From the NCBI GenBank assembly GCA_965214775.1, contig OZ243974.1, positions 800,001 through 864,000 on the forward strand: a DNA stretch of 64,000 bases, given 5' to 3'. Positions within the stretch are counted from its first letter, which is position 1; the number at the start of each line of letters is the position of its first letter. Below, one piece after another: positions 7,934 through 48,400 of the stretch. Source of the DNA: Nitrosopumilus sp. Lineage in GTDB: Archaea; Thermoproteota; Nitrososphaeria; Nitrososphaerales; Nitrosopumilaceae. A program made the position numbers and the translations under genes. The notes below the pieces were generated by a model. The model saw nothing but the letters and a program-made list of their open reading frames with translations, was not told where the DNA came from and did no database searches.

Positions 7934-7990
7934 CCCATATGAAATCGTACCTAATCCTACCGTGGACTCTTGCCAGCTTGATGTTCCAAA

Positions 7991-8218
7991 TCAGGACAAT
8001 GTTACTATGCGATGCATCCCCATATACTTTCTCTGCGTGAGAGTCTTGTTCTGAATGCGGTACTCTTCTCCGGTGGTCAGCATGTGCCAGATTATCTCCA
8101 GCATATGCCTTGCAACTGCAATCTTTGCCTTCTGCCATCCTCGTCTCTTTCTTATCCTTTCATATATAGAACCAAGTCTTGAGTCGTTTCGTACTGCTAC
8201 TGTGGCCGAGTTGATCAT
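7991..8218 (-). pseudogene. IS110 recombinase remnant: start MIN fused to the C-terminal region
   Basis: YERIRKRRGWQKAKIAVARHMLEIIWHMLTTGEEY is a typical IS110 C-terminus; SD GGAGGTGA precedes the ATG. Confidence 0.85.
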
Positions 8219-8239
8219 GTTATCACCTCCTTTTTGATC

Positions 8240-8400
8240 AAAATGCCTGATCCGGGCGGAATCTCCCATTCACCGTCTGCGCGGTATATTGCTTTCCGCC
8301 TGCTGTTGTTGCAAGTCAGTCTGTTTGACACCCTTGTACATGGTAAGATTAAATCGACTCTCAGGCCCAGCAGTAATTGTATATCACAGGATACAGATAA
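8240..8400 (-). ncRNA. Putative IS110 bridge RNA, copy 1 (target-binding hairpin 8314-8359; donor-binding hairpin 8256-8299)
   Basis: Covarying stems versus 34810-34960; loops match the element's own junctions; boundaries approximate. Confidence 0.75.
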
Positions 8401-8541
8401 GATTTCATATAGCGTCTGTTTGTTTGCATCGCAATTTATTTTGGCACCATCTGAATTTTGTTTTTGAGACACATATGGTTACACGTATACGATGATAATA
8501 ACGGACAGGAAAAAGTCCGGGGACGACAACAAGACGGTGGA

Positions 8542-8632
8542 GTACGAGTTTGCCCCTCACCTGAGATACGGCGTGGCAGGCGTGAACATGAGGACTCTGG
8601 ACAGCAGTGACGCCCAAGGGGTAAACTCGTAC
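8542..8632. mobile_element. MITE family A (91 bp; TIR GTACGAGTTT(G/A)CCCCT)
   Basis: 16-bp TIR; reverse-orientation homolog of 35033-35123; no TSD visible. Confidence 0.85.
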
Positions 8633-9080: not shown

Positions 9081-10215
9081 TAGTATCCTCGACTACCAAT
9101 TGATCACAAAAAGGACAATTTTTTTCAACCAAAGGATCTAAGAGCTATTAGTCCCATATATACACATGAAAGGAAAGAAGGAATTACCGACGGGAACAGC
9201 GTTCCTGTACGGGATAGCAAGCAAGGACGAGCTTTTTAGGATGCACAAGTCCGAGAAGGACGCCAAGGCGGCAATCCGGCTCCTTGCATACCACATGAGA
9301 AAGTGCGGCGCGAGCATATATGATATTGCCGAGAAGCTGAGCAGGCCGTATGGAACCGTACGATACTGGCTGGTGCGTGCGCACAAGCATGGCCTGGAGG
9401 GCAGGTTTGACATAAAGCATGGCGCCCCGTGCAGGCTCGACAAGAAACAGCTTGAACGGCTGCGCGCAGACCTGATCAAGGGCCCGGACAACTGCGGCTT
9501 TAAGGCCACAACATGGACAGGGCCGCTGGTCATTGCCCACGTCAAAAAGAAGTTCGGCATCACGTATGCAGAAACGAGCATGTACGACCTGCTGCACAGA
9601 ATCGGCTTCTCATGCAGAAAGCCCAGGCCAAAACACCCAAAATCAGCCTCAGAATCCGAGAAAAAGGAGTTCAAAAAAAAAGCTAGGCAGAGCGCAAAGT
9701 ACTATTCAAAAAAGGGGTACACGGTAATGATAGGCGACGAGTCCATGTTCATACTGGGATGGAACGTCAAGAACAGCTGGTACCCCGTAGGAGAGCCGGT
9801 CTATACGCCCGTCAGCCTGTCTAGGAAGCGGTTCTATGTCATAGGGGCCCTCTCAAGAAACAGGTTTGACTATCGCTTTTACGAAAAGGCCAACACGGGA
9901 ACGTTCTACAAGTTTCTCAGGACACTGCGCCGCAAGTACGGCAAGGTGTTGTTGTTTGTCGACAACGCATCGTACCACAAGTCAGCAGAACTCAATAGAA
10001 AGATGGCCAAGTGGAACGGGGACGTGGTGCTAAAGTACCTGCCGCCGTACGCGCCGGAGCTTAACAACTCGGAGGGGCAGTGGCGCGGGTTCAAAAAGGC
10101 GACTTCAAACTGCCTTTACAAGACCGTCAAGGAGATGCAGAGATCACTGCGCAGTATGACGCGCAGGGGCGAGATAAAGGTGGTAAAGATGAACAAATGG
10201 CTGACGTAGATACTA
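9081..10215 (+). mobile_element. IS630-family element type B, copy 1 (1135 bp), flanked by CG
   Basis: Ends TAGTATC...GATACTA; near-identical to 47266-48400. Confidence 0.95.
9166..10209 (+). CDS. IS630 transposase (single unframeshifted ORF)
   Basis: HTH region, GDES, DNASYH and LPPYAPELNNSE motifs. Confidence 0.95.
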   Translation: MKGKKELPTGTAFLYGIASKDELFRMHKSEKDAKAAIRLLAYHMRKCGASIYDIAEKLSRPYGTVRYWLVRAHKHGLEGRFDIKHGAPCRLDKKQLERLRADLIKGPDNCGFKATTWTGPLVIAHVKKKFGITYAETSMYDLLHRIGFSCRKPRPKHPKSASESEKKEFKKKARQSAKYYSKKGYTVMIGDESMFILGWNVKNSWYPVGEPVYTPVSLSRKRFYVIGALSRNRFDYRFYEKANTGTFYKFLRTLRRKYGKVLLFVDNASYHKSAELNRKMAKWNGDVVLKYLPPYAPELNNSEGQWRGFKKATSNCLYKTVKEMQRSLRSMTRRGEIKVVKMNKWLT

Positions 10216-31868: not shown

Positions 31869-33155
31869 CTACACGGCAGCCACCGCCTCTGCTATCCACT
31901 TGTTGTACAGCCATATCCTCAGCTTTACTTCCTGCACTATATTGGACCACTTGAGGGCCATTACGCATTCGCCGAACATGCGCTTTATGGCCGATATTAC
32001 GATCTCGACGATCCATCTGCTGCCAAAGCCGACCGTGCTCTTCCAGTACCGCAGGTTCTCCTGTCTTTCCTCCTTTGAGAGATCACCCACCGGCACCTCG
32101 GGGCCGCCCCCGAGCTGCCATCGCACCAGCCGGCCCCACTTGTCGCCGGTGCCCTTGCCCTTTGCATTGCAACTTGTCAAAAGCCGTATGAGTGGTTTTA
32201 TGCCGCGTTTGTGACACTCGGCTACGTTTTTCCTCGAGCCGTATCCGCCGTCTGCAAGCAGGATCTTTCCCGGTATATCTGGATTCGCGCCGGTGCCGAG
32301 TACAGCCAGCGGCGATGTCCCGTCTGCAAGCATGTTGGGGATCTTGACTGTATCCGCGCTGTCGGTGCGGCTCTGCTCCTCTTCCTTCTTGATGTTCTTG
32401 ACTGTATCCGCGCTGTCGGTGCGGCTCTGCTCCTCTTCCTTCTTGATGTTCTTGACTGCATCCGCGCTGTCGGTGCGGCTCTGCTCCTCTTCCTTCTTGA
32501 TGTTCTTGACTGCATCCGCGCTGTCGGTGCGGCTCTGCTCCTCTTCCTTCTTGATGTTCTTGACTGCATCCGCGCTGTCGGTGCGGCTCTGCTCCTCTTC
32601 CTCCTCTTCCTTCTTGATGTTCTTGACTGCATCCTCAAGCAGTGCCGGCAGTTCCGTGCTGTCGCCGATTGCATCACTTGTGACAGATACTGCCAGCACC
32701 TGCTTGGTGTCTGCATCGACCATCAGGTGCATCTTGACAAATCCGCGCCTTACCTTCCATTTCTTGCATATCCACTCGCCCCGGTTGTGCTGCTTGAGGC
32801 CAGTGGCATCGGCTATCATGACCAGGTTGCGGGACTTGTCGCGCACCGTGATTATGTTCTCTGCAATGTCGACGTCAAGCTTCTGTATCCTTCTGAATAT
32901 CGTGGTGTAACACGGCGAGTCCGCACCCTTTAGCATCTCCCCGAGCATACCTGACAGCTGCCTGTACTTTAGCATGAATGCGGTCCTGAGGGCGGCTGCG
33001 GCCATTATCATGCCTTCTGCATACAGGAACGGGGCGCCCTCCTTGTGGCGGTTGGCAACCTTGAGATCCTTCTCCCAGTCCGGGTTGTACTTGACGACCA
33101 GGCCTGCCCCTCTCTCTACGTACTTTGCATTATCCGTGCGTGTCAATGTATACAA
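31869..33155 (-). CDS. IS5-family transposase with in-frame tandem repeat
   Basis: ADATG, ADGGY and RWIVEIVISAIKRMFG motifs. Confidence 0.9.
   Translation of the reverse strand: MYTLTRTDNAKYVERGAGLVVKYNPDWEKDLKVANRHKEGAPFLYAEGMIMAAAALRTAFMLKYRQLSGMLGEMLKGADSPCYTTIFRRIQKLDVDIAENIITVRDKSRNLVMIADATGLKQHNRGEWICKKWKVRRGFVKMHLMVDADTKQVLAVSVTSDAIGDSTELPALLEDAVKNIKKEEEEEEQSRTDSADAVKNIKKEEEQSRTDSADAVKNIKKEEEQSRTDSADAVKNIKKEEEQSRTDSADTVKNIKKEEEQSRTDSADTVKIPNMLADGTSPLAVLGTGANPDIPGKILLADGGYGSRKNVAECHKRGIKPLIRLLTSCNAKGKGTGDKWGRLVRWQLGGGPEVPVGDLSKEERQENLRYWKSTVGFGSRWIVEIVISAIKRMFGECVMALKWSNIVQEVKLRIWLYNKWIAEAVAAV
32342..32633 (-). repeat. 54-bp tandem repeat, five copies (AVKNIKKEEEQSRTDSAD)
   Basis: Direct period of 54; one unit has 9 extra bp. 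Confidence 0.95.
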
Positions 33156-33765: not shown

Positions 33766-33908
33766 GAAAGAGTTTACTCCTCAGGCGTAGTACCAACATC
33801 AAAAAATGGAATATAATTTTGTCACATCGTGCCTGTTTTGCCAAAAAAATATTCGATTTTCAACTGCACGCACTACTGCACTGCTGGCCGGGCAAGAGTT
33901 TGCCCCCG
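33766..33908. mobile_element. Family A MITE fragments (GAAAGAGTTTACTCCTCAGGCG...; GCAAGAGTTTGCCCCC), interrupted
   Basis: Similar to the start of 35033-35123. Confidence 0.6.
33788..33875. mobile_element. 88-bp MITE with TAGT...ACTA ends (IS630 type B-like)
   Basis: Homologous to 48846-48933; preceded by CG. Confidence 0.75.
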
Positions 33909-34099: not shown

Positions 34100-34627
34100 A
34101 TGCAACATGCTGCACGGATACACGTAAGCGGAATCGTCCAAGGCGTCGGTTTTCGCTACCGGGTAAGGAGCGAGGCAGGCCGCCGGAGAATCACCGGACA
34201 CGTCGAGAACCTTGAGGACGGCACGGTCATGATAGAGTGCGAGGGCAAAAGGGAGGACATTGAGGGGCTTGTCGCCTCAATAAGGGACAGCAAAGAGCCG
34301 GTGCAGGTAGACGACATCGACGTGCAGTACTCAGAGGGTACCGGAAGGTTCAAGACATTCAGGATAGTGGCAGGAAACATGGAAAGCGAGATTGTCGAGG
34401 GCTTTGCTACCGGTGCCATGTACCTGAATGACATTGCCGCAGGGCAGAGACAGATGCTGGACAAGCAGGATCAGATGCTGGACAAGCAGGATCAGATGCT
34501 GGACAAGCAGGATCAGACCATAACGGAGATCCGAGATCTTTCATCCAACATCCACGAGATGCTTGACTCTCGGTTCGAGAGGATAGAAAACGACATAACC
34601 AAGATAAAATCAAAACTGCAGATATGA
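34100..34627 (+). CDS. Acylphosphatase-like protein with C-terminal coiled coil
   Basis: GIVQGVGFR...GHVENLEDGTV; (QMLDKQD)x3 from a 21-bp repeat at about 34451-34516. Confidence 0.88.
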   Translation: MQHAARIHVSGIVQGVGFRYRVRSEAGRRRITGHVENLEDGTVMIECEGKREDIEGLVASIRDSKEPVQVDDIDVQYSEGTGRFKTFRIVAGNMESEIVEGFATGAMYLNDIAAGQRQMLDKQDQMLDKQDQMLDKQDQTITEIRDLSSNIHEMLDSRFERIENDITKIKSKLQI

Positions 34628-34809
34628 CCCGCATCTGCCGGGGTGCGGTAAGGCCATAGGCCTGAACAATGAACTGACGCGCCCTAGGATGCGGCGTGAG
34701 GTACATGATGATCAGGATCTTGTCCGGCAGTGCAGCCTAGGGAGTGGTGGGATAAACTCCAATATCAAATTATGCTGATTCCTTGCAGTATGAGACGTTA
34801 TATCAAATC

Positions 34810-34960
34810 TTATCTGTAGCGGACGCCATATTATCCGTGTTGGGCCCAAGAGCCGAAGTAAACTTGCCACACATGAGGGCGCGTAAGAGACTGGCTCAGA
34901 GTAGACGGACGACGAAATGCCACATAATCGAGGGCGAATGGGAGTTTTCCGTTCAGTTGG
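34810..34960 (+). ncRNA. Putative IS110 bridge RNA, copy 2 (target-binding hairpin 34851-34896)
   Basis: Covarying stems; loops differ from copy 1; boundaries approximate. Confidence 0.72.
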
Positions 34961-35032
34961 GCACACACACTTTGATCAAAAAGGAGGTGATAAAATGATC
35001 AACATAGGAATAGACGTTCATAAGAAGACATG

Positions 35033-35123
35033 GTAAGAGTTTACCCCTCAGGCGACTCTGCTGGTCGGAGCCTTGATCACCGTGCCTACCACGTCGTATT
35101 TTCTGGAGGGGGTGAGCTCTTAC
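35033..35123. mobile_element. MITE family A (91 bp), 9-bp TSD GAAGACATG, inserted in the IS110 recombinase start
   Basis: TIR GTAAGAG(T/C)T(T/C)ACCCC; TSD at 35024-32 and 35124-32. Confidence 0.95.
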
Positions 35124-35154
35124 GAAGACATGTATAGTAACCATCAAAGACCAG

Positions 35155-35236
35155 GTACAACTTCAGGTCCTATTTATACTGGCAAGCAAATACTTCCTAG
35201 ATTCCTAGGCGGTTTAAATAGGACCTGAAGTTGTAC
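35155..35236. mobile_element. 82-bp MITE-like element with perfect 22-bp TIR
   Basis: GTACAACTTCAGGTCCTATTTA...TAAATAGGACCTGAAGTTGTAC. Confidence 0.8.
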
Positions 35237-35305
35237 GAAGTCTTTGAGTCAAAGTAGGTCATAACTACACGTAAAAAACCTCAATTATTTCTGCTCGTTG
35301 CTATA
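35237..35305 (-). mobile_element. Partial IS630 type A end/MITE
   Basis: Reverse complement of about 11818-11886. Confidence 0.85.
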
Positions 35306-35434
35306 CAAACAGTCGAGGCCTTTGACGGGCAATCTGACCGTGTTTTGACTCAAAGACTTTTACTGTTGCCATATTATTGGTACATTTTTCGAATGAACCA
35401 CTTTGCTAATTATTCAAAACGAGTATTGCGGATC

Positions 35435-36457
35435 ATGGCACTTGGAGAGACTAGTACAAAATATTCCGTATCCAATCAAGAGATACAAAATCTAAGTGAT
35501 GATGCCCAAAAATACTCTGAAAAACTATTGGGAATATTTGATGAAACTCACAAGGTCATTATCGGACAAGAGAACGCACTGCAAAAAATCCTCATCTCAA
35601 TTATTGCAGACGGACATGTGCTTTTGGAAAGCGTTCCCGGTCTTGCTAAAACTTTGATGGTAAAAACCATGGCACAAATTTTCAATGTAGATCACGTTAG
35701 AATTCAATTTACGCCAGATCTCTTGCCTGCAGATATTTTAGGAACAAAAATTTACAAAAATTCTTCGGGTTCCTTTGTCACCCAAAAGGGCCCAATCTTT
35801 CACAATTTTGTTTTAGCTGACGAAATTAATCGCGCACCGCCCAAAGTCCAGTCTGCATTGCTTGAGGCAATGCAAGAAAGGAATGTGAGCATTCATGGCG
35901 ATACCTATGAACTAAAACGGCCGTTTTTGGTTCTGGCCACCCAAAACCCGATTGAAAACGAAGGAACATACAGGCTTCCAGAAGCCCAGGTTGACAGATT
36001 TGCCCTGAAAATCCTACTTGATTATCCATCAAAGCAAGAAGAGATGGATATCATCGAGAGAAATTCTTCAAACTACAACCCCGAAATCAAAGCAATGGTT
36101 AGCCCCGAAGAAATTCTAGAGATTCAAAAGTTTAATGAGAAAATTTACGCCGATAAAGTGATCACTGAATATATTGCAGATATTGTCAACGCAACAAGAA
36201 ACCCAAAGGAATATGAGCTGGATTTAGAAGACATAGTTGAATTTGGCGCATCGCCAAGAGCATCAATATGGCTAATGAGAACAGCAAAGGCAAACGCGCT
36301 GCTTGATGGAAGGGGATTTATCATTCCTGAGGACGTAAAGGCAGTTGCTCACGAAGTCTTGCGTCATAGAATTATCCTGACTTTTGCAGCAGAAGCAAAC
36401 GGGTTGACTGCCGATAAAGTCATTGACTTTGTTTTAGAAAAAATTAATTCCCCATAG
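35435..36457 (+). CDS. MoxR-family AAA+ ATPase
   Basis: PGLAKT, RIQFTPDLLPAD, DEINRA and ATQNPIE motifs. Confidence 0.95.
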   Translation: MALGETSTKYSVSNQEIQNLSDDAQKYSEKLLGIFDETHKVIIGQENALQKILISIIADGHVLLESVPGLAKTLMVKTMAQIFNVDHVRIQFTPDLLPADILGTKIYKNSSGSFVTQKGPIFHNFVLADEINRAPPKVQSALLEAMQERNVSIHGDTYELKRPFLVLATQNPIENEGTYRLPEAQVDRFALKILLDYPSKQEEMDIIERNSSNYNPEIKAMVSPEEILEIQKFNEKIYADKVITEYIADIVNATRNPKEYELDLEDIVEFGASPRASIWLMRTAKANALLDGRGFIIPEDVKAVAHEVLRHRIILTFAAEANGLTADKVIDFVLEKINSP

Positions 36458-47265: not shown

Positions 47266-48400
47266 TAGTATCTACGTCAGCCATTTGTTCATCTTTACCA
47301 CCTTTATCTCGCCCCTGCGCGTCATACTGCGCAGTGATCTCTGCATCTCCTTGACGGTCTTGTAAAGGCAGTTTGAAGTCGCCTTTTTGAACCCGCGCCA
47401 CTGCCCCTCCGAGTTGTTAAGATCCGGCGCGTACGGCGGCAGGTACTTTAGCACCACGTCCCCGTTCCACTTGGCCATCTTTCTATTGAGTTCTGCTGAC
47501 TTGTGGTACGATGCGTTGTCGACAAACAACAACACCTTGCCGTACTTGCGGCGCAGTGTCCTGAGAAACTTGTAGAACGTTCCCGTGTTGGCCTTTTCGT
47601 AAAAGCGATAGTCAAACCTGTTTCTTGAGAGGGCCCCTATGACATAGAACCGCTTCCTAGACAGGCTGACGGGCGTATAGACCGGCTCTCCTACGGGGTA
47701 CCAGCTGTTCTTGACGTTCCATCCCAGTATGAACATGGACTCGTCGCCTATCATTACCGTGTACCCCTTTTTTGAATAGTACTTTGCGCTCTGCCTAGCT
47801 TTTTTTTTGAACTCCTTTTTCTCGGATTCTGAGGCTGATTTTGGGTGTTTTGGCCTGGGCTTTCTGCATGAGAAGCCGATTCTGTGCAGCAGGTCGTACA
47901 TGCTCGTTTCTGCATACGTGATGCCGAACTTCTTTTTGACGTGGGCAATGACCAGCGGCCCTGTCCATGTTGTGGCCTTAAAGCCGCAGTTGTCCGGGCC
48001 CTTGATCAGGTCTGCGCGCAGCCGTTCAAGCTGTTTCTTGTCGAGCCTGCACGGGGCGCCATGCTTTATGTCAAACCTGCCCTCCAGGCCATGCTTGTGC
48101 GCACGCACCAGCCAGTATCGTACGGTTCCATACGGCCTGCTCAGCTTCTCGGCAATATCATATATGCTCGCGCCGCACTTTCTCATGTGGTATGCAAGGA
48201 GCCGGATTGCCGCCTTGGCGTCCTTCTCGGACTTGTGCATCCTAAAAAGCTCGTCCTTGCTTGCTATCCCGTACAGGAACGCTGTTCCCGTCGGTAATTC
48301 CTTCTTTCCTTTCATGTGTATATATGGGACTAATAGCTCTTAGATCCTTTGGTTGAAAAAAATTGTCCTTTTTGTGATCAATTGGTAGCCGAGGATACTA
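47266..48400 (-). mobile_element. IS630 type B, copy 2 (1135 bp), flanked by CG
   Basis: Near-identical to 9081-10215. Confidence 0.95.
47272..48315 (-). CDS. IS630 transposase
   Basis: One amino-acid difference (E/D) from copy 1. Confidence 0.95.
   Translation of the reverse strand: MKGKKELPTGTAFLYGIASKDELFRMHKSEKDAKAAIRLLAYHMRKCGASIYDIAEKLSRPYGTVRYWLVRAHKHGLEGRFDIKHGAPCRLDKKQLERLRADLIKGPDNCGFKATTWTGPLVIAHVKKKFGITYAETSMYDLLHRIGFSCRKPRPKHPKSASESEKKEFKKKARQSAKYYSKKGYTVMIGDESMFILGWNVKNSWYPVGEPVYTPVSLSRKRFYVIGALSRNRFDYRFYEKANTGTFYKFLRTLRRKYGKVLLFVDNASYHKSAELNRKMAKWNGDVVLKYLPPYAPDLNNSEGQWRGFKKATSNCLYKTVKEMQRSLRSMTRRGEIKVVKMNKWLT

Follow-up and report, generated by a model that had tools for sequence, protein, structure and literature searches.

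A decayed IS110/IS1111-family element in a Nitrosopumilus genome with a predicted guide RNA for the ends of a MITE family

Does the guide RNA of a decayed insertion sequence point to the same MITE family that interrupts its recombinase gene and, if it does, is this the trace of a conflict between both elements? The question is raised by a relic in the window, which is the whole stretch of 64,000 nucleotides analysed here (G000:C1:800001-864000) from a genome of 2.83 Mb in a single contig. A sequence-only reading of this stretch had proposed a reciprocal parasitism, in which the guide targets the terminal repeat of the MITE family (family A) that disrupted the recombinase.

Layout and state of the relic

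BLAST searches against the genome revealed that 34600-35400 is a set of nested repeats (Table 1). Positions 34788-35154 correspond to a relic of the IS110/IS1111 family, called Sub2 from here on, composed of a target remnant (GTATG), the core AG, a non-coding left end of 200 nt and 20 recombinase codons. The left part of Sub2 (34788-35032 and 35118-35154) has about ten relatives with 80-98% identity, and it is followed by three more small repeat families (35155-35236, 35237-35305, and 35305-35374). The recombinase starts with the ATG at 34995 and reads ATG ATC AAC ATA GGA ATA GAC GTT CAT AAG AAG ACA TG, which gives MINIGIDVHKKT plus two bases of codon 13. This codon (TG-T) is split by a family A MITE of 91 bp flanked by a 9-bp duplication, as the sequence-only reading had described, and the reading frame picks up after the MITE as CIVTIKDQ. 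The homology to the recombinase stops after codon 20, where other MITEs start, so the gene is truncated as well as interrupted. The pentamer GTATG is the remnant of the target and lies outside the element; a start of the element at GTATGAG was considered and dropped after comparison with the copies of the sister subfamily Sub1.

Contigs of the sequencing runs X1, X5, and X7 (three studies) bridge 35123/35154 without differences, and those of X5 and X7 do the same for 35032/35033. Run X8 provides only a partial piece with 4 differences (35041-35123), and no contig skipping the MITE of codon 13 (empty site) was found among those of X1, X5, X7, and X8. The runs may come from the same strain, and their contigs add no independent support.

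The DNA next to the relic (window 34400-34787) has an inverted segmental duplicate at genome 379922-380400, and this duplication covers the adjoining pile of repeats together with the 3' end of a neighbouring gene (34100-34627). The 175-aa frame of that gene also carries three tandem units of 21 bases (MLDKQDQ x3) at 34447-34510.

Table 1. Features in and around the Sub2 relic (window positions).
Feature	Position	Strand	Basis
What is left of a family-A-like terminal repeat that an older insertion used as target (minus strand: AG TTTATCCCACCACTCCC)	34740..34758	-	Junction table (genome 834759); arrangement complete in the inverted duplicate at genome 380015
Right-end fragment (29 nt) from an older mini-element derived from Sub2, in opposite orientation to the relic	34759..34787	-	...GCATAATTTGATATTGG-AG; identity of 93% with the right end at 415387
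Left target remnant GTATG, from the outer end (5 bases) of a family A-type terminal repeat	34788..34792	+	GTATG, GTAAG, or GTACG at 11/11 readable Sub2 left junctions; same 5-mers head family A repeats
Core dinucleotide AG (CT on the other strand), at both element junctions	34793..34794	+	Junction comparison
Sub2 non-coding left end; subterminal inverted repeat ATATCAAAT at 34800-34808, TATA-like box, ribosome-binding site	34795..34994	+	Comparison of left and right ends
Predicted bridge/seek-RNA fold: closing stem, target-binding loop, donor-binding loop	34842..34965	+	93.5% of cells paired vs 25-50% slid; 9 pairs changed on both sides
5' target guide AAGUAAACU (DNA AAGTAAACT), complementary to core AG + TTTACTT of the top strand	34856..34864	+	Flank calibration and right junctions
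3' target guide GUAAGAG (GTAAGAG 34883-34889; sense of left target + core), then AC, the first two bases of the element, handshake-like	34883..34891	+	Flank calibration; rule from passages of PMC11208158
3' donor guide AAUGGGAG (sense of right end ATGGG + core), then UU, the first two bases of the right target	34937..34946	+	Invariant in 11/11 aligned sequences
Recombinase codons 1-12 and two bases of codon 13 (MINIGIDVHKKT, C)	34995..35032	+	Homologous copy c403 with PF01548 and PF02371
Target-site duplication, copy 1 (GAAGACATG)	35024..35032	+	Read in the sequence
Family A MITE, 91 bp, left repeat GTAAGAGTTTACCCCTC, ends GGGGGTGAGCTCTTAC	35033..35123	+	About 100 related copies; imperfect terminal inverted repeats
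Target-site duplication, copy 2 (GAAGACATG)	35124..35132	+	Read in the sequence
Rest of codon 13 to codon 20 (CIVTIKDQ)	35133..35154	+	35118-35154 matches 403988-404024
Palindromic MITE of another family, truncating the relic	35155..35236	.	Many copies, 97-100% identity, both orientations
Repeat of 69 bp, third family	35237..35305	.	More than 80 copies

Recombinase domains and the Sub1 sister subfamily

The genome contains 34 matches to PF01548 (DEDD recombinase domain) and no intact Sub2 recombinase. The best Sub2 copy, c403 (403765-405123), is cut about 100 bp short of its right end and its gene holds another MITE with the duplication CTTGCAAAG, but its two pieces still carry PF01548 and PF02371. 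The match to the N-terminal domain has E = 2e-24 for the first piece of c403 and E = 3.3e-28 for the Sub1 protein, which places both in the IS110/IS1111 family. PF02371 (C-terminal Transposase_20) is present in the second piece of c403 and in Sub1 and absent from the window copy, truncated at 35154, whose only 20 codons align to the c403 and Sub1 proteins. The remaining Sub2 copies are fragments of 36-371 bp, and Sub2 DNA adds up to 4746 bp in 24 intervals. Because no intact Sub2 recombinase remains, the guide of the window copy would be a fossil unless a related recombinase uses it.

The sister subfamily Sub1 is intact, with at least 3 full copies of 1336 bp encoding a 360-aa protein with PF01548 and PF02371, and shares with Sub2 67-70% of DNA identity, 58% identity in the N-terminal protein domain, the donor-loop 3' guide, and the element ends. 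Comparison of copies with their flanks set its true boundaries as ...N5-AG-ACGC...CATATGGG-AG-N... A tblastn of the Sub1 protein against plasmids gave matches labelled only 'IS110 family', the best one (38% identical) in a Haloarcula plasmid, and these labels do not separate the IS1111 type from the IS110 type.

Both subfamilies have left small derivatives. A non-autonomous Sub1 derivative of 484 bp (window 7934-8417 on the minus strand, flank 8418-8484) joins a 209-bp left end with the RNA region to 286 bp of the right end; its insertion point, ...GCAAACAAAC-AG-ATT, belongs to the non-coding left end of a different IS110 subfamily. The guides of this derivative are TCAAAC-AG and AGATTAAA, and a second copy with the same left target is located at genome 549050. 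The Sub2 right end alone (GTAAGAG-TATAAAGCGATGG...GATATGGG-AG) forms mini-elements of about 93 bp at genome 380015, 90311, 1208183, and 710438 (minus strand), and window 34759-34787 is a fragment of one of them. They would have transposed or arisen repeatedly, since they share the internal left junction and differ in their flanks. At genome 1916198 (minus strand) only a 16-base remnant is left between GTAAGAG and AGTTTACG. In addition, a Sub2 left end at genome 2666049-2666350 stops at ...CACTTTGATC, where it is cut by a further IS110 subfamily through its left end (GTAACCATATGTGTCTC...); this subfamily has 18 copies with diverse left flanks.

Guide segments and flanks

The predicted target GTAAG-AG-TTTACTT depends on two segments of the left end being the target guides, and the calibration with the sister subfamily upheld that choice. 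The alignment of 22 Sub1 and Sub2 left ends displayed a conserved scaffold and two hypervariable segments, which in the sister subfamily Sub1 (16 copies) repeat the left flank and are complementary to the right flank. Specifically, the RNA segment directly 5' of AGACU repeats five bases of the left flank plus the core AG, and the segment after GUCGA is the reverse complement of the core and the right flank. Applied to the window copy, this rule reads the target given above.

The guide equals the flank at 98/115 positions on the left side of 23 Sub1 and Sub2 left ends (mean of 1.82/5 for non-cognate pairs; 0/10000 shuffles reach this value), and its complement equals the flank at 42/60 positions on the right side of the 12 copies with a linked right end (reached by 3/10000 shuffles), counts in which kin copies are not independent and several copies share flanks. 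The misses are s1_2169 (1/5) and s1b_1690 (2/5) on the left, and s1_2751 (1/5), s1_2787 (1/5), and s1_2634 (2/5) on the right. Only 3/7 Sub2 copies have a guide that agrees with the flank at the fourth base of the left target, which is variable, and this is close to random pairing. Regarding other genomes, the copy G014 L015 fits the rule on both sides (left ACGTAAT-AG with guide AGTAAT-AG, right AG-TTAATT with guide AATTAAC), and the fit is partial or absent in the G014 copy L020, G052, and G006. Taken as a whole, loop segments match both target strands and vary with the target, as expected from a bridge/seek RNA.

Sub1 carries at least five guide pairs (genome 2746642, 2030284, 2751230, and others), whose left targets are TCAGT, TTTAT, CTTAT, CAAAC, and TTTAC; no two pairs share the repeated sequence in which they are found. 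The TCAGT variant, for example, lies 14 bases inside GTAACCATATCAGT-AG-TTCCTAG, the end of a repeat of about 630 bp with 8 copies.

A broader reading of these data would be that the IS110/IS1111-type copies of the genome, whether live or dead, carry a set of RNA guides that each point to a different mobile element, at its end or its guide-RNA region, and that the intact Sub1 recombinase uses the orphan Sub2 guide RNAs and mobilises the derivatives of 93 bp and about 480 bp in trans. The targets may be the family A MITE ends, the end of the 630-bp repeat, and the non-coding region of another IS110 subfamily. We consider this quite improbable; if it were true, dead copies would keep steering insertions into rival transposons.

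RNA fold

The predicted RNA was evaluated with an alignment of 11 sequences (four of Sub2, three of Sub1, G052, G006, and two of G014). The consensus fold comprises the closing stem, the outer and inner stems of the first loop, and the inner stem of the second loop, with 8/23 pairs compensatory, and it includes two loop stems and two hairpins besides the closing stem. The outer stem of the second loop (ACGGA/UCCGU) was then added. In the resulting structure of five helices, 93.5% of the cells pair versus 25-50% when the partners are slid, 9 pairs change on both sides, and the covariation score is reached by 0/500 shuffles. The fourth helix scores 80%, in part because MAFFT misplaces one base in Sub1. 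The single-sequence fold of 34815-34985 is no more stable than shuffles (z = 0.39), so the case for the structure rests on covariation instead of a thermodynamic signal. An Rfam scan of 34500-35500 (E <= 10) gave no bridge-RNA family, and only chance miRNA and snoRNA matches on the palindromic MITEs. The predicted fold is that of a structured RNA with two internal loops in a long non-coding end, the arrangement of bridge and seek RNAs.

In the second loop, the 3' strand (AAUGGGAG followed by UU) fits the right end ATGGG, the core, and the handshake bases. The 5' strand, CGACGAAAU at 34913-34921 (Sub1: AAGCAAUAU), differs from the complement of AGACGTTAT that would be expected, and resembles the left end of the element in the same sense. 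No match of this strand to the element ends was obtained under the IS621 rule or across the five lineages compared by eye.

Family A ends and the Sub2 junctions

Family A presents the features of a MITE family: it is short and non-coding, with terminal inverted repeats, many copies, and a target-site duplication. The genome has 280 repeat-like ends and 83 pairs, 72 of the latter of 90-92 bp. A 9-bp duplication with at most one mismatch flanks 33/83 pairs, without a common sequence, and it is perfect in 30, including the MITE of codon 13. No autonomous partner with the same terminal repeats was found in the genome, since the only two long pairs with duplications are MITEs with another insertion sequence inside. 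These two, at genome 2049450-2050703 and 18055-20634, have perfect 9-bp duplications; one holds an element of 1166 bp (12 copies, 337-aa frame) and the other an insert of 2.5 kb.

The repeat of family A, GTAAGAGTTTACCC (right-end variant GTAAGAGCTCAC), matches the predicted target of the window copy at 12/14 positions and differs in the last two (TT vs CC). Its first 12 bases, GTAAGAGTTTAC, occur 60 times in the genome versus 0.42 expected from composition, nearly always followed by CCC, and GTANGAGTTTAC occurs 125 times. For the full 14-base target, an exact match is absent from the genome, and matches with at most one mismatch number only 2. In the window, the 12-mer has 3 matches with at most one mismatch versus 0.22 expected, a number reached by 0/100 shuffles. 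These are the matches that the sequence-only reading had listed: GTAAGAGTTTAC at 35033-35044 on the plus strand (12/12), and the variants GTACGAGTTTAC at 8621-8632 (minus strand) and GAAAGAGTTTAC at 33766-33777 (plus strand), with one mismatch each.

The Sub2 junctions were also counted across the genome. All readable Sub2 left junctions (11/11) are preceded by GTATG (5), GTACG (3), or GTAAG (3) plus AG, with unrelated DNA upstream, and a twelfth is cut by another MITE. On the right side, 7/9 junctions continue as AG plus TTTACC or TTTATC; beyond it, five of them enter a family A MITE, at one end of the MITE or the other, and the remaining two, which are a duplicated pair, lead into a related repeat. 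Another right junction reads AG+TTCTTACCCCC, and the ninth, at 90311, adjoins a different repeat. The core AG is present at 11/11 left and 8/9 right junctions, in one orientation relative to the repeat throughout and with no longer duplication, as in other IS110/IS1111 elements. Since several junctions lie in duplicated segments (two of the 11 on the left), the independent events are at most 10 on the left and 8 on the right. Genome-wide, then, Sub2 insertions are found in family A or family-A-like repeats split after GTANG-AG, the outcome that favours the sequence-only reading.

The 5-mers that head 201 family A repeats include GTACG (52), GTAAG (52), GCAAG (22), GTATG (15), and GTAGG (10). 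This bears on a different interpretation, in which GTANGAG would be the terminus of the element itself and its likeness to the MITE repeat would come from common descent or a shared transposase. The homology among Sub2 copies does appear to begin at GTA, and the RNA contains GTAAGAGAC, which is also junction-like. However, the fourth base varies as in the MITE repeats, the right end lacks the inverted CTCNTAC and continues into MITE sequence, and the same five positions in Sub1 differ per copy and follow the guide of each one. Moreover, the family A MITE at 710438 keeps its own 9-bp duplication (TGAGAACTG / TGACAACTG, 8/9) around a 93-bp Sub2 derivative placed 7 bases inside the repeat. This duplication lies outside GTAGG and, because it encloses the MITE together with the insert, the MITE was there first and the piece derived from the insertion sequence came later. 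An own terminus is therefore very improbable.

Insertion in the opposite direction, with MITEs landing beside IS110 ends, is the least probable reading of all. MITEs are indeed frequent in and around IS110 relics, but at the junctions the MITE is split, with 7 bases on one side of the insertion sequence and the rest on the other, and a MITE insertion would keep both of its ends together with a flanking 9-bp duplication, as at 35024-35132.

The best explanation, to which we give a probability of roughly 0.8, is a decayed insertion sequence with a DEDD recombinase and a bridge/seek RNA that would have guided it into family A MITE ends; judged from sequence, RNA-guided and orientation-specific insertion of Sub2 at these sites appears well supported. 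The 200-nt non-coding left end would encode the RNA with its two internal loops, and its pairing with the target would determine the site. The shared core, AG (or CT on the opposite strand), would be the site of the recombination that places the element between GTAAGAG and TTTAC; the insertion point would lie 7 bases into the terminal inverted repeat, with an orientation that does not vary. Splitting of the MITE repeat, perhaps with loss of the mobility of the MITE, would be a by-product. Given that at least 125 such ends are supplied, family A may act as an abundant and dispensable landing site, a possible safe harbour for the element. The MITE of codon 13 would be an ordinary insertion with duplication into an element already dead or killed by it, and the copy would later have been cut off after codon 20.

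Nesting in both directions

The reciprocal parasitism proposed by the sequence-only reading has two parts, the nesting of each element in the other and the antagonism between them. The former is present; the latter would require a fitness effect that cannot be read from sequence. As an arms race, the guide would have been selected to disable a competing transposon, and the MITE in turn would knock out the recombinase. Nesting in both directions is seen more than once. The layers of the window go from the older Sub2 mini-element to the MITE remnant GTATG-AG, then to Sub2, and finally to the MITE of codon 13. A second case of a MITE in Sub2 is likely in the copy c1191, where the gene reaches codon 19 (...ATCAAAGA) and gives way to GTAAGAG plus 26 bases from a further Sub2 left end. 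A third case of a MITE in Sub2 is implied by the GTATG-AG of the relic adjoining the mini-element fragment at 34759-34787, a mini-element that is complete in the inverted duplicate (379.9-380.4 kb). Under a uniform null, about 140 MITE copies would leave 0.23 insertions in the 4746 bp of Sub2 DNA (0.17% of the genome), with P(>=2) = 0.024 and P(>=3) = 0.002. Furthermore, the sister variants, too, are inserted in other mobile elements, at their ends or in their non-coding parts, and ISEc21 targets IS3 transposase genes according to the relevant passages of PMC11187229.

On the other hand, two of the three MITE insertions into Sub2 are deduced from only 7 bases, and a uniform null is unrealistic when insertions survive mainly in dispensable DNA. 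If this DNA is 15-20% of the genome (an estimate, not a computed value), about 1.2-1.6 events are expected and the excess vanishes. The MITE duplications lack target preference, other MITE families also strike Sub2 copies, and at most about 20 junctions stand against 280 repeat-like ends. Because survival is mainly in dispensable DNA, two of the cases depend on 7 bases, and other MITE families lie in the same relics, the nesting is read as two abundant elements that share junk DNA, and selection for antagonism seems unlikely. The suspicion that the insertion of the MITE into the recombinase might be due to chance is well founded, with P(>=1) = 0.21 even under the uniform null. The preferred reading thus remains an insertion sequence guided to MITE ends, with an ordinary MITE insertion on top.

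Other features of the window

Two open reading frames of 347 aa, at 9166-10209 (plus strand) and 47272-48315 (minus strand), lie 37 kb apart in opposite orientations and differ in one residue; they are probably the transposase of another insertion sequence family. A 428-aa frame at 31869-33155 (minus strand) has in its middle five tandem copies of an 18-residue unit (DAVKNIKKEEEQSRTDSA), in a stretch with 57% G+C.

Comparison with known systems

One precedent is IS4321/IS5075, which insert in the terminal repeats of Tn21 according to the title of Partridge and Hall (2003) as cited and to the target-logo passage of PMC11187229. From these descriptions, both they and Sub2 are insertion sequences with a DEDD recombinase and subterminal inverted repeats that take one position and orientation inside the terminal repeat of another transposon. 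Sub2 differs, in a comparison made by description, in its archaeal host, in having a 91-bp MITE as target instead of a Tn3-family transposon, and in an RNA region located upstream of the gene.

A MITE family as landing site of an IS110/IS1111-family element is also known from IS1111 of Coxiella burnetii, where, in the part of PMC5896051 that concerns it, 20/21 copies are in QMITE2, a MITE of which 10-20 bp remain at the 5' side. The target described there is a palindrome inside the MITE, whereas Sub2 targets the terminal repeat at its outermost 12 bases and thereby splits the repeat itself.

ISEc21, of the IS110 type, is guided by a seekRNA to a conserved part of IS3-family transposase genes and has naturally reprogrammed relatives (passages of PMC11187229). 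It shares with Sub2 the upstream non-coding region, the RNA-guided insertion (predicted in Sub2), and a target inside another mobile element. However, the top-strand match is 3' of the bottom-strand match in ISEc21 and 5' of it in Sub2, as in the IS1111 members described in those sections (PMC11187229, Siddiquee et al.).

The bridge RNA of IS621, as presented in the passages of PMC11208160 and PMC11208158 used here, has two internal loops, each with stem, guide, hairpin, and guide; the 9-nt guide ends in the core, and the shorter one ends in the complement of the core plus two handshake bases. Its targets are REP (same part of PMC11208160). Compared with these descriptions, Sub2 has the loop layout, the guide and handshake rule, and the core CT if read on the other strand. 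Nevertheless, the pairing frame of Sub2 is inverted with respect to the gene order, the flank read by its 5' guide is the one distal to the RNA gene, it has subterminal repeats, and the IS621 rule is not fitted by the 5' strand of its donor loop.

The ends and guide order of Sub2 are of the IS1111 type and not of the IS621 type. They agree with the IS1111 subgroup, as outlined in the corresponding passages of PMC11187229, in the left end AGACGTT + ATATCAAAT (an extension of 7 bases including the core), in the right end ATTTGATAT + GGG (3 bases), and in a top-strand match 5' of the bottom-strand match. The difference lies in the 200-nt RNA region, upstream of the recombinase gene in Sub2 and 'usually' downstream in that subgroup by the same account; past the gene, the right end of Sub2 measures about 100 bp.

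Among the papers listed by a full-text literature search, none reports an archaeal IS110 aimed at a MITE end, judged by title and start of abstract; the supplementary target tables of PMC11208160 and PMC11187229 may contain targets in archaea or in MITE ends. The targeting of transposon ends, MITEs, and other insertion sequences by IS110/IS1111 elements is already in print, and Sub2, which adds an archaeal case, leaves the picture of what these elements do unchanged. Its interest is that, in this natural case, the guide itself tells the target of an RNA-guided recombinase and some twenty junctions of one genome serve as a check, next to a sister subfamily that shows several naturally reprogrammed guides side by side. 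Moreover, Sub2 pairs an upstream RNA gene with ends and a guide order of the IS1111 type, an unusual mix which, together with the tiny non-autonomous derivatives, could be useful for defining the minimal donor.
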